64,000 nucleotides of DNA from Felis catus (Eukaryota): positions 20,648,001-20,712,000 of the forward strand of contig NC_058368.1 of NCBI RefSeq assembly GCF_018350175.1, given 5' to 3'. Position 1 is the first letter of the stretch; each line of letters begins with the position of its first letter. The notes under the pieces were generated by a model that saw only the letters and a program-made list of their open reading frames with translations, made no database searches and was not told the origin of the DNA. Position numbers and translations under genes: made by a program. Shown piece after piece: positions 17,098 through 34,171 of this stretch.

Positions 17098-17520
17098 CGG
17101 CTTAGCCCCGCGCCCTTAGTGGCCTCCATCAGCCACCAAATGGTGGCTCTGCAGACTCTGCAGCTGCTGCAGCAGGAGTGGGGCTGAGGGGGCGGTCCGA
17201 GCGACCCCGGGAGCCCGCGCGATCCAGACCACGTGTCCGCCGCCCCAGCGCGTCGCATAGGCAGGCCCTCGGCCGGCCGGGCCTGTCCTGGGGCGCCAGG
17301 ATGGGGGGGGCAGGAATGGGGGGTTCTGGGGCGCGGGTCAGCTCCCCAGAAGCGGAAGCGGTGCGAGGCGCCGAGGGGGGCGCGGAGCTGCACCCTGGCC
17401 CAGATGGGCATGCGCAGCGCGCTGGCGCGCGTGGTGGCCTCGACCTCGGAGCTGGTCAGCGTGGAGCAGACGCTGCTGGGCCCCCTCCTGCAGGAGAGGT
17501 CCTTCCCCAACCATCCGAAG
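17098..17520 (+). pseudogene. DLEU7: DLEU7 (leukemia-associated protein 7) coding exon 1, disrupted
   Basis: Translation gives [50 protein letters not shown], then ARVSSPEAEAVRGAEGGAEL in another frame, then CTLAQMGMRSALARVVASTSELVSVEQTLLGPLLQERSFPNHPK, matching human DLEU7 as recalled. CGG CTT occupies the Met-Ala position, TGA lies at 17185-17187, and the exon ends AAG|gcgagt. Confidence 0.88.
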
Positions 17521-19974
17521 GCGAGTCTGGCCTCCCGCACCCGCGTGGGGCGCAGGATCCCCGGGCAGGGCGGGGCCGCCCACTGCGAGGCCGCGCTGGC
17601 CACAGACCTTCCGCCGGGGCGAGAGAGAACGCGGGAGGCGACACCCCCGGGGACTTGAGTCCAGGAACTCGGGCCCACCTGGAGCCCACCTGACTGCGGG
17701 GCCGAGACGCGGGGAAGCCTTGCCAAAACCTGCCTCTGGAACTCCTTTCTGTCTCTCACATAAATCAGCTTCCTGCTCCAGCTGAAGGCCCTTTCCACAT
17801 GTGCAGCGGTCTGTGGATGGAGGACGGCTCCCCCTGCCCCCCCTTCTAAATTGATAGCCCTTTCTCCAGAGCCTTGCATACACGTATGAGGTCCCCTCTG
17901 TCTTTTGCATGACAAAATCACCTAGATTTATTTAAAGTTCCTTCACACTTAAGACTCACGATTCTTTTTGCACAAATCCAACTCCCCGCAGAGTTCAGAG
18001 GCCTTGCAGAGTCAACCTAAATTCTCATAAAGTGGGGTGAGAGCGGGGTGGGTTTCGGGTGTTGAAGCGTGAATACTAATGCTAAACTCCTGCTAAGTCA
18101 CGCAGCTCATATCTGTAGGGCACGTTTCCTCTTACGGTACCAAACTGTTAAGTCAGTCGAGCCGGGGAACATAGCGGCCGCCTCTCAGGCCGAGTGGGGC
18201 TGTGGAGACCTGGGGGGGCTTGGGATCCAGTCTCCGCTTTGTCATTAACTAACCTTAATTGGTTGAAGGTCACGGATCTTGAGATCTTCTGGCTTTCCAG
18301 TTTTGCTTCATTGCTGCCTCCCCGGCGGCTAGCGGAAGGAAATGAGGGAGGGATGTTGAAGAAAGCCTGGAGCTGTCCTCAGGAGTTGCTTTTCTTGCTC
18401 CACAAGCCAGGGTTTGGGGCAAAAATGGGAAGTGCTGCTCCACTCATGTTAGACAGTTAAAAAAAGCAGCTGCATTTCACCAATGCTCTCTCGTGTGAAA
18501 TGCACCTTGTATTTGGTACCCCAAAGAAATAAAAACTCCTGCCAGTTAAACTATGATGCGCCGTTTCTAAGATGTATCGCCACTTCCGAGATTTTTGAAA
18601 CCTCGTGACAAGAGGTGCATCTTTAGAACTGACGGAGTAGGAAGCGCTGTGTGATGTCAGGAACCTATTTGGGGTGGGGCACAGGTAGGTTGGCAAGAGG
18701 AGAGGCCGAGTGAGGAGTTCCACCTTAGGTGATCTCGGAAGGCTTCTCAGAGGAAGTGATCTTTAAGAAACAAAATGAAGGCTTGCCTCGCAGACATGAA
18801 AGGGAAAAAACATTTCAGGGGAGCTGTGTGATCCAAGGCCCGGAAGCAAGGAAAGGGCCTGGGCCTTTGGGGGAACTGAAATGAGCTCGCTATGGCAGAA
18901 GGTATAAAAGGATGCTGGAGACGTAAGTGGGGTCAGGTGGCGAAAGGCCTGTGTGTCACGCAGAGGACGTTGAATCGTCTTGCAGGCAAAGGCAACTGTT
19001 GAAATGACTGAGGCGAGGACCTGACCCTGGATAAATCACAGCCGGGGAGGTCGCAGTTTGGGGGTCAGGTCAGAGACCGTGGTCCGAGGGCCTGACCCAG
19101 CTCAGACGCACTGAGCTCTCTGCTCTGGCCTACAAATCACACCTCCAGAACTTTACCCAGCTGTCACTTCTACTTGGTGACCCTCTTAACGCTTTCGACT
19201 TGACTTTTGTCCTCAACATGTTCCACCGTCCTCAAGCTTTCTTTATCCAAACCTCAACCCCCTCACTCCTTTTCCGAGAAAATGGAGGCCGACAGACACA
19301 AACAGCTTCCTCTCGACCTGAAAAATCTCATTTCCACTCATCCTCCTTCTTGTCGCTAATAAATGCTGTTTGGTCCCCCTGACCCCCAACCAAAGTAGCC
19401 TTCCTCTTAGCTGCTAGAGCAAATCCTTCATCTGCCCTGGACCTCGTTCTATCAATTCGCTTCTCATCCGTATAGTCTCTGCTGCCTGCACTCTGCCGGT
19501 TCCTCAGTCCATAAACTTGCTCAAGCTTCCCTTACCTCCCCGCACCTTGAGTCCCAGTCCTTTATTCACCTTCCGAGAAAACAAGTAGACATCTGCATGT
19601 GTTGCTTCCACTTTCTAGAAGTGTCCAGAGTGCTCATTAGGAACAGAGCTGTCAACTTTCTTACTCCCGGAGTCTGCTGCTCACCTGCAAGGGTGAGTTC
19701 TTAGAGCTCCTGAGAAGAGCCAGTACTTTCAGAAGGGAGAGAAACAGGCAGAGGTTTCTCTGGATGATTTGCCTCCTGGCTAACTAACATCTTGGGATTT
19801 TTCTTGGTTTTCTATTTGGAGAGAAGGTAGTATCTCCATTTGGTTGTGGAGTAATGATTATAAAGAACTCAGACTTAAGGACACAATAGTTTGTCTTTCC
19901 AGGGGGCTGGTTATGCAGAGTTGGCTTCATTATCACTGGTGTTAACTCGAAAAAGTCGGGAGAATTGTCTTTCT

Positions 19975-21570
19975 ATATATTTTTTCTGACATAAGTTTTA
20001 GGTGCACAGCTTTATCATTTGACATCTGTATATACTACAAAGTGATCACCACCATAAGTCTTGTTACAACCCATCACCACACGGTTGACCACCTCCACCC
20101 ATTTCACCCACCCTTCAACCCCCTTCCCCTCTGGGAACCACTAGTCTGTTCTCTGTATCTCTGATTTTTGTCTTTGCCTTATTTTGTTTGTCCTTTTGTT
20201 TTGTTTTTTAGATTTCACATCTGAGTGAAATCATACAATATTTGTCTTTCTCTGTTTGCCTTATGTCACTTAGCATAGTACCCTTGAATCCATCCATGCT
20301 GTCGCAAATGGCAAGATTTTATTATTTTTTATGGCTATGTGTGTGTGTGTGTGTGTGTGTATGTGTGGAGCCACCTCTTTATCCATTTATGTATCAATGG
20401 ACATTTAGGTTGTTTTCATATCGTGGCTATTAAAAATAATGCTGCAGTGAACACAGGGGTGCGTGTATCTTTTCACATTCGTGTTTTCATATATTTTGGA
20501 TAAGCACCCAGAAGTGGAAGAGCTGACTCCTATGGCAGTTCTGTTCTTTATTTTTTGAGGGATCCTCATAGCGTTTTCCAGAGTGGCTGCACCAATTTAC
20601 ATTCCCACTAACAGTGCACAAAGGTTCCCTTTTCCCCCCGCTCTCACCAACACTTGCTATTTCTTGTCTTTTTGATACTAGCCATTGTAACAGGTGTTAG
20701 GAGATACTGTGGTTTTGATGTGCATTTCTCTAATAATTAATGATGTTGAGCGTCTTTTCCTGTGTCTGCTGTCCACCTGTATGCTTTCTTGGAGAAATGT
20801 CTATTCACCTGCTCTGCACGTTTTTTAGCCAGTAGTTTACTTTTGTGTTGTTGAGTTGTATGAGTTCTTTATATATATTTAGATATTAACCCCTTCTCAG
20901 ATGTTTGGTTTACAAATATCTTCTCCTATTCAATAGGTTGCTCGTTTATTCTGGTGATGGCTTCCTTTGTGGAGGAGAAGCTCATTAGTTTGATGTAGTC
21001 ACATTTGTTTATTTTTGCTTTTGTTTCTATTGCTGTTGGAGTCAGATCCACAAAGATGTGTCCCTAAGACTGATGTCAAGGGAGCTTACTGCCTATGCTT
21101 TGTCCCCCCGTCTCATTCTTTTGCCTGTGGCTCTCCAAGGTTCTCATTACCATTTATGGAAGAGGCTGTCCTGTCTTCATTGTTATTGGCTCCTTTGTCA
21201 TAGATTAATTGCCCATATATGTATGGATTTATTTCTAGCTCTCAGTTCTGTTCCATTGATCTGTGTGTCTGTTTTTGCACCAGCATTGTGGTATAGCTTT
21301 GTAGTATACCTTGAAATCAGGGAGCATGATCCTTACAGCTTTGTTCTTTTTTAATTGTGCTTTGGCTATTTGGGATCTTTTATAACTCCACACAAATTTT
21401 AGAATTATTTGGTCTAGTTCTTTGAAGTATGCCATGAATTTTGATAGGGATTGCACTGAGCCTGTAGGTTGCTTTGGTTCATATGGCTATTTTAACAGTA
21501 CTAATTCCTTCAATCCCTAAATACGGAATATATTTCCATTTATGTGTGTCTTCTCCAATTCCTTTCATGT
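19975..21570 (-). mobile_element. L1 3' portion in the DLEU7 intron (antisense)
   Basis: Minus-strand ORF2-like [22 protein letters not shown]...[10 protein letters not shown]; reverse L1 3' UTR; internal (TG)n. Confidence 0.9.
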
Positions 21571-21779
21571 TTTCTATATTTTCAAATTAAGGACACGCAG
21601 ATTGATTTTCTACACAGAATGATTTCAAGAGGACTTGTACTAATGGAAATAACACTTGTGTGTCACTTGGAAGTGTGTGGAAATGTCTCCAACATCAGGT
21701 CTCTTTCACAGTGTTACTTGCCACAGAGAGGAGGACTCACTTGGCCTGAAGCCCACAGCCCAGGTGATAGGCAGCAGGG

Positions 21780-33354: not shown

Positions 33355-33868
33355 TAGGAACAAATAACAGAAACTCAACTCCAAATGGCTTAAGTAAAAA
33401 GGCATATTTATTGACTCAGATACCCCCAAAATCCTGGGGTTTATTGTTCAAGTATTGCTGGGTCAATATGCTCAGACAATGTAATTAGAATCAATCACTT
33501 TTAATACCTTTGTTCTACTTTCTTCTGTGCTGTCTTCTTTCTCATTTGGATTCTCCCCTTAGAGTGACAAGATGCTTTCTAAAAGCCCCAGTTAAAGAGA
33601 GCTTCTCTTTCACAATCTAACAGACATTCTGGAACTGTGGCTTATTGGTCTTTGTTAGACCTGTCCATTCCTGACCACTCCAAGTGGCCGAAGGGGGGTG
33701 GTCTCCGATTGGTCTGGTCCCTGGAGTCGTAGAATTGGGGTCAGCTTTAGTCAAACCACATAGGCTGAAAATGGAGGGGAGAGGTTCTCCGAGAGAAAAA
33801 ATGAGGTCCTATGATGAGAAGAGATGGGAATGGAAGCTAGGTACACAAAACATAACAAATGTCCCATA
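33355..33868 (-). mobile_element. Old MLT1 (MLT1K/L-like) LTR next to the exon 2 acceptor
   Basis: aacagaaactcaactccaaatggcttaagtaaaaagg...tttattgactca, caagatg, aaaccacataggctga motifs. Confidence 0.7.
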
Positions 33869-33904
33869 AACTATCTAATTGTATGTGTTTGCTGTTTATT
33901 TCAG

Positions 33905-34171
33905 GATCGTGTTGAGTTTAGACACATCTGCAGTCATTTGGCTCTACAAATTCAAGGACAACAGTTTGACAGAGATCTGGATACTGCCCACCGGTGTTTG
34001 AAGATGATAGTCATGAAGCTGATTCAGTCACTTGCTAATCTTCCTTCAGATGCCCACGTGATAGCCTGTGCTTCTTTGAGACAGATCTTACAGAATCTCC
34101 CAGACATGTGGATGCTCAAGACACCAGAATTAGAACCACAGCCAGTACTGCTAAGAGGACTGGGTACCTGA
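33905..34171 (+). pseudogene. DLEU7: DLEU7 coding exon 2 (open frame; ancestral stop apparently replaced by TGG, reads on to TGA 34169-34171)
   Basis: Acceptor tgtttatttcag|GAT at 33904/33905 with a branch-like ctaat about 30 nt upstream. Translation [68 protein letters not shown] matches the recalled human C-terminus ([25 protein letters not shown]...QILQNLPDI). Phase 0 joins exon 1 in frame. Confidence 0.9.

Follow-up and report, generated by a model that had tools for sequence, protein, structure and literature searches.

The gene DLEU7 encodes leukemia-associated protein 7 (Pfam family PF15760), and in humans it lies in 13q14, a region commonly deleted in chronic lymphocytic leukaemia. 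Among cats, the sweet-taste receptor gene TAS1R2 is a felid-wide unitary pseudogene. UGT1A6 is likewise described as a felid-wide unitary pseudogene (PMC3065456). DLEU7 has been reported to inhibit NF-kB via the TACI and BCMA receptors, and the human gene is reported to have a CpG island at its transcription start site (PMC3616974). Squamate DLEU7 is listed among 'unretrieved orthologs' in PMC13005343. Here we analysed the DLEU7 locus of Felis catus in a stretch of 64,000 nucleotides (the window), which corresponds to C1:20648001-20712000 of a 2.43-Gb assembly in 71 contigs.

Comparison of this locus with the intact DLEU7 of other mammals (Suricata suricatta, Crocuta crocuta and Callorhinus ursinus, 221 aa) shows that it contains two coding exons split at the same Lys, a first exon within a CpG island and RNASEH2B as a neighbour, but lacks a start and the normal stop, contains a nonsense codon, frame changes, a 29-nt deletion and a GC donor, and deviates at 13 of 113 conserved columns. 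We conclude, with a probability of about 0.88, that this is the single orthologous felid DLEU7 locus and that it no longer encodes the 221-residue protein, which makes it a unitary pseudogene. Partial sequences from other cats suggest that the pseudogene status is probably felid-wide. Lineage-specific gene loss is an ordinary kind of event. No report of the loss of DLEU7 in felids was found in the literature, a search that did not cover the supplementary tables of genome-wide loss screens, which may already hold it.

Orthology and exon structure of the DLEU7 locus

The window was searched by tblastn with five DLEU7 orthologues (meerkat, fur seal, baboon, zebra, porpoise), which identified the remnants of two coding exons on the forward strand. 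Exon 1 (17098..17520), also examined by frame-aware alignment, matched the five orthologues with E values of 1e-46 to 1e-50 and 57-61% identity, and exon 2 (33905..34108) with E values of about 1e-34 and 84-86% identity. The Pfam DLEU7 profile scored 98.4 bits for exon 1 and 96 bits for exon 2, against a cut-off of 27, so that a chance match is not an issue; on the open reading frames (ORFs) of the window that cover the 3' part of exon 1 and exon 2, the scores were 100.6 and 98.2 bits. The window and the orthologues are interrupted behind the same Lys codon, in phase 0; the intron here measures 16.4 kb (17521..33904, forward strand), and repeat comparison revealed short interspersed elements (SINEs) and L1-like repeats in it. 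The intron acceptor is intact (...tttcag/GAT, 33903-33905). The former promoter and exon 1 are covered by a CpG island (16600..17800), with a GC content of 0.61-0.78 and an observed-to-expected CpG ratio of 0.60-0.90 in 200-bp bins. The 2-kb bin containing it (16001-18000) has a GC content of 0.62, compared with 0.34-0.49 in the other bins of the window.

To locate further copies, the whole assembly was searched in six frames with the meerkat DLEU7 protein, and only these two exons matched (31 of 31 candidates scored). The Pfam DLEU7 profile, run in six frames against all 71 contigs, gave the same two exons as the only passing matches (14 of 14 candidates scored). An intact orthologue elsewhere, which would contradict the loss claimed in the initial annotation of this sequence, did not appear: no intact second copy of DLEU7 was found in the 2.43-Gb assembly at the sensitivity of the protein and Pfam six-frame searches.

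The synteny with RNASEH2B, which the initial annotation had proposed as a check, was recovered as a sub-threshold match. Genome-wide, the N-terminal domain of RNase H2 subunit B (PF17745, Ydr279_N) scored best at C1:20584604-20584732, on the minus strand; this position is about 80 kb from DLEU7 exon 1 on its upstream side, and the two are divergent. The match spans one exon's worth of sequence and is weak (23.9 bits against a cut-off of 25.2; E 5e-5 as a single protein). PF09468 did not match RNASEH2B, a result that is uninformative because the control matched nowhere either. Table 2 of PMC10969784 places RNASEH2B, DLEU7, KCNRG and TRIM13 in a block of cat chromosome A1 at 18.5-23.6 Mb, a position compatible with the window coordinate C1:20.65 Mb; this table is headed 'protein coding genes', yet includes tRNA genes.

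The window locus is the DLEU7 orthologue, because it is the sole match in the genome, retains the intron and the CpG island, and has RNASEH2B as its neighbour. It is not a retrocopy, because the intron and the CpG island are retained. Together with the several independent lesions described below, these features support the earlier view of a lineage-specific loss.

Sequence changes in the two exons

The initial annotation had reported that exon 1 lacks a start codon and carries an in-frame TGA, and both changes are present. The sequence at 17098..17103 (forward strand) is CGG CTT, in place of the Met-Ala found in 54 of 54 full-length orthologues. The frame upstream is open, and its sole in-frame ATG (16747) is 117 codons away in non-homologous sequence. 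The next ATG in the starting frame (17140) opens 15 codons, followed by TGA. At about codon 30, 17185..17187 (forward strand) is an in-frame TGA where the aligned orthologues have Trp, and the six-frame genome searches likewise recorded one TGA within the match. The possibility that a TGA is read as a selenocysteine or Trp codon was ruled out, as there is no start and other parts of the frame are disrupted.

Small indels, together with a net 29-nt deletion, have put the central part of exon 1 out of the frame of its two ends. The match to the orthologues departs from the starting frame between about 17260 and 17321, and regains it at about 17388. Frame-aware alignment with four of the five orthologues placed three events here (at about 17260-17290, at 17312-17321 and at 17388), and two with the fifth; the two frame switches originally described are therefore confirmed as a minimum. 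One or two of the changes fall in a zone (17260..17325, forward strand) that contains runs of 8 G (17303-17310) and 6 G (17318-17323). The junction of the frame-shifting deletion (17387..17389, forward strand) was placed at 17388 in four of the five alignments, with 1 base left compared with 30 in the orthologues, which corresponds to the loss of about 10 codons. The start loss, the nonsense codon and the 29-nt deletion constitute independent lesions, and a complete DLEU7 ORF from Met to stop (about 221 codons) is not present at the locus.

Two further changes are present as first described, but carry less weight than was given to them. The last codon of exon 1 (AAG, 17518-17520) is followed by a GC instead of a GT donor (17521..17522, forward strand; AAG/GCGAGT by direct reading of the sequence). 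ORFs that read through the donor contain K-A-S-L in the window, P0139, P0140 and P0141, corresponding to GCG, and K-V-S in P0095, P0096, P0097, P0100 and P0101, corresponding to GTG. Judged from its context, the GC donor is otherwise consensus; splicing may persist, and the donor would not be disabling by itself. At the other end of the coding region, TGG (34109..34111, forward strand) replaces the stop of the orthologues, a change common to P0127, P0128, P0135, P0136 and P0137. It opens a read-through tail of 19 codons (34112..34171, forward strand) up to a new TGA at 34169-34171, and this tail is near-identical in the same five felid-like sequences. On the sequences compared, the stop loss alone is not evidence of inactivation, because P0001 and P0002, with a well-conserved exon 2, show the same change from TGA to TGG. 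Compared with the non-felid exon-2 consensus, P0001 (a 12-member Logan cluster) has 0 changes and P0002 has 2, excluding the last residue and a column occupied by Q or E.

P0002 (Logan, 156 aa) aligns to window positions 33720-34168, with 41 of 51 intron-derived residues identical. It has the felid read-through and tail, yet 0 of the 5 exon-2 substitutions shared by the felids. P0002 is, as judged from this pattern, a more distant relative, in which case the stop loss would either be older than the other felid changes or have arisen twice.

We next considered whether DLEU7 could be intact, with the lesions being assembly errors. Exon 1 is a hard sequencing context (69-78% GC), and one frame change lies beside the G-runs. 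P0140 and P0141 begin at the ATG at 17301, read in the other frame, and have two extra bases between this ATG and the next CAG; the run at 17303-17310 is, by comparison of these sequences, variable in length between assemblies (8 and 10 G). This makes it uncertain how many small frame changes lie in 17260-17325, an uncertainty that does not extend to the 29-nt deletion. The difference in run length between the window and P0140 (Logan) and P0141 (ENA) may reflect a polymorphism, divergence between species or a homopolymer error in one assembly.

The remaining lesions are of a different kind: the start loss, TGA, GC donor and stop loss are substitutions, and a 29-nt deletion is no homopolymer slip. 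P0139, from ENA assemblies, is identical letter for letter to the window ORF 17404-17655, and clusters with P0140 and P0141. Besides reading through the same deletion junction, P0140 and P0141 have the window's GC donor and exon-1 substitutions. Exon-1 and exon-2 substitutions recur, with the junction and the donor, across ENA and Logan assemblies and two named felids, and the sequences of these independent assemblies support the deletion junction, GC donor, substitutions and stop loss. Sequencing runs were also compared with 89 words sampled from 16850-17750, about three of which cover each site. Fourteen DNA-like runs of one organism, from 7 studies, contained 0.97 of the words, the best share of any run; no run contained all of them, and this share would allow about one differing site among the six lesion sites, which cannot be assigned to any of them. 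Assembly error could explain one homopolymer shift at most, and we consider an intact gene extremely improbable. The earlier argument that the lesions are not one sequencing error is upheld by the features that recur in separate assemblies, and weakened for the single frame change beside the length-variable G-runs.

Constraint, other felids and related lineages

To assess whether the locus has been under constraint, we compared it with 54 orthologues at the 113 columns in which these are conserved to at least 95%. The window deviates at 13 of these columns (9 plain substitutions, 2 in the start region and 2 in the deletion), compared with a leave-one-out median of 1, and the replaced conserved residues are spread over both exons. 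The next placental, a pig entry, deviates at 7, and two turtles at 30. Compared with the consensus over 68 positions of exon 2, the window and five felid-like sequences each carry 6-10 differences (window, 10), including one column with Q or E in which carnivores have Q. The 78 other exon-2 sequences show a median of 1 difference, and 71 of the 78 have 3 or fewer. A hand count across the six felid-like sequences gave at least 12 changes in 69 exon codons versus 2 in 19 translated tail codons, and a hand count of four sequences gave 3 changes in 27 codons of the translated intron flank. On these small numbers, exon 2 appears to evolve no slower than the non-coding flanks, with no sign of purifying selection.

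The felid-like sequences were obtained by two protein searches with exon 2. The search restricted to 122-2000 residues gave 67 matches among 81 candidates, and no felid protein was present among these 67. The search restricted to 63-203 residues gave 16 matches among 19 candidates, to which cluster members were added. The five felid-like sequences are P0128 from Lynx pardinus, P0137 from Prionailurus iriomotensis, P0127, P0135 and P0136. Nearest to the window among the named ones are P0137, with 83 of 88 residues identical over exon 2 and the tail, and P0128, a partial ORF with 94% identity. The window and all five share N>H, A>T, Q>R, K>M, N>D (G in P0127), the change from TGA to TGG and the same tail. 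Each of the six also carries private exon-2 changes, among them S>R, T>M and V>I in the window and P0136, I>M in the window alone, S>H in the Lynx sequence, A>T in the Prionailurus sequence, and A>V and I>A in P0127. The loss had been ascribed to 'this felid'; that restriction does not hold, as the changes are common to at least a lynx and a Prionailurus.

Exon 1 of other felids was sought in the protein collection with the window ORF 16747-17184. No felid ORF was found, and the best extended matches (P0095, P0096 and P0098) belong to other species. By exact look-up, this ORF and four others of the window are absent from the collection. Aligned to window positions 16912-17621, P0098 (Logan, 241 aa) is a single ORF that crosses the exon-1 homologue in three successive frames, which suggests yet another lineage with a frame-shifted DLEU7.

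A rival reading is that a shorter working protein is made, starting at the ATG at 17404 (or at 17301, if the G-run is two bases longer) and consisting of the C-terminal two thirds with a 20-residue extension, the N-terminal third being lost. The conserved part alone accounts for the Pfam scores of 100.6 and 98.2 bits, and in P0140 and P0141 the ATG at 17301 is in frame with the conserved C-terminal part. However, three ATGs (17140, 17301 and 17316) precede 17404, and the first of these, with A at -3 and G at +4, ends after 15 codons. Residues that are at least 95% conserved are replaced in the proposed protein (A>G, L>P, S>R, N>H, A>T, Q>R, T>M, K>M and V>I), and the six felid-like exon-2 sequences diverge from one another at about the rate of the flanking non-coding sequence. 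P0137, a 168-aa model whose start is an internal Met, is a submitter's model that includes an extra exon of 113 nt. The counterpart of this exon, detected by tblastn, is an intronic stretch with AG/GT borders (25539..25651, forward strand; 37 of 44 residues identical at window positions 25519-25650), and it is not in the canonical proteins of the other mammals compared. We consider a shorter working protein improbable.

A further reading, compatible with a DLEU7 pseudogene, is that the locus has lost its coding capacity and persists either as a non-coding gene that is transcribed or as a promoter serving a neighbouring transcript. The CpG island is without decay, the splice sites are kept (consensus-like GC donor, intact acceptor), and three RNA-labelled runs contain 0.32-0.74 of the words from 16850-17750. 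These runs are metatranscriptomes that may carry host DNA, and their word shares exceed the fraction of the stretch that is exon, a pattern consistent with DNA or unspliced RNA. All six RNA-labelled runs, with shares of 0.04-0.74, are metatranscriptomes and were not used as evidence of expression. Survival as a non-coding locus is conceivable, although we regard it as unlikely.

Several points weigh against a unitary, felid-wide pseudogene. A single open frame covers the 3' part of exon 1 and the whole of exon 2, the annotated start of P0137 is the Met at which a shorter protein would begin, and both ends of exon 1 share one frame in this assembly. The start loss and the TGA are directly seen solely in this assembly, and the word share of 0.97 leaves room for the one differing site mentioned above. 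The intact CpG island suggests that the promoter is probably still in use. The evidence on selection consists of amino-acid counts. The other felids are known from protein-level fragments from exon 2 and from the 3' half of exon 1, without the first 100 codons, and the term 'felid-wide' is based on Lynx pardinus, Prionailurus iriomotensis and the window.

In other carnivorans, annotations include the canonical protein of 221 aa for Suricata, Crocuta and Hyaena, with the Hyaena entry flagged low quality. It is also annotated for 15 listed members of a caniform cluster of 19 (pinnipeds, bears, mustelids, panda). All of these are annotation models and not demonstrated proteins. Given the canonical outgroups, the shared felid changes postdate the split from hyenas and mongooses, and predate the split among the lineages of Lynx, Prionailurus and the window.

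The canid DLEU7 models (P0056, P0067, P0132 and P0138) look broken as well. In the Nyctereutes (raccoon dog) model the N-terminus is read out of frame, the Lycaon (African wild dog) model is flagged low quality, and the model for Vulpes vulpes (red fox) begins with a foreign 5' end, followed by intron read-through into exon 2. Among the matches, none of the canid proteins is of the canonical 221-aa form, and canid exon 2 shows 8, 10 and 23 differences from the consensus over 68 positions. DLEU7 may have been lost independently in Canidae. Combining the two, a tentative scenario, to which we give somewhat less than an even chance, is that DLEU7 was inactivated in the cat stem lineage and independently in dogs and foxes, and kept in hyenas, mongooses, bears, seals and mustelids; its canid half derives from aberrant gene models alone.

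Within the intron, several copies of one SINE family, which we take to be of carnivore type, lie at 26819-27226, 23579-23644, 24374-24541 and 31775-31933. Two copies follow each other head to tail with a period of 215 and 82% matches; one copy is inverted (93%). Nine further ORFs of at least 130 aa in the window gave no Pfam match. ARAGORN called tRNA-like sequences at 8074-8148, 9855-9940, 39152-39237, 50228-50313 and 58136-58221, typed as Lys-CTT, three Arg-TCG of 86 nt and one 'SeC' (58136-58221). Only the first call (8074-8148) meets the Rfam tRNA threshold (50.1 bits), and the three Arg-TCG calls of equal length resemble repeat heads more than genes. The cat list in PMC10969784 has a TRNAR-UCG in the region.

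Proposed consequences and comparison with described gene losses

We propose that, in a transcript from the CpG-island promoter, the first ATG encountered would be that at 17140 (A at -3, G at +4), and that translation from it would stop after 15 codons. The usual rule for nonsense-mediated decay is a distance of 50-55 nt between a stop codon and the exon junction downstream. Because the TGA lies 333 nt upstream of the junction, the spliced RNA would be an expected target of nonsense-mediated decay and would be degraded. The onset of gene decay would fall between the split from hyenas and mongooses and the later split among the lineages of the window species, Lynx and Prionailurus. Felids would then be without the reported DLEU7 brake on NF-kB signalling driven by TACI and BCMA.

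If the loss is family-wide, DLEU7 would be dispensable in a long-lived mammal, and cats would represent a natural knockout for comparative lymphoma research. Lists of cat genes that include DLEU7 as protein-coding, such as Table 2 of PMC10969784, would need correction. Should the losses in cats and canids both be true, the two companion-carnivore families would be natural knockouts of a candidate 13q14 leukaemia suppressor, reported to restrain NF-kB via TACI and BCMA in B cells.

The felid DLEU7 locus resembles UGT1A6 and TAS1R2, in that a single-copy orthologue has several disabling mutations across cats and is kept in other carnivorans. The losses of UGT1A6 and TAS1R2 are tied to diet and drug metabolism, whereas that of DLEU7 has no known link to felid biology and is supported by a far thinner sampling of taxa. 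Squamates, as reported in PMC13005343, are similar in being another vertebrate lineage in which DLEU7 was not recovered as a gene. There, DLEU7 is simply unfound and may be highly diverged or GC-rich, whereas in the cat the remnant is in place, and its lesions are readable.

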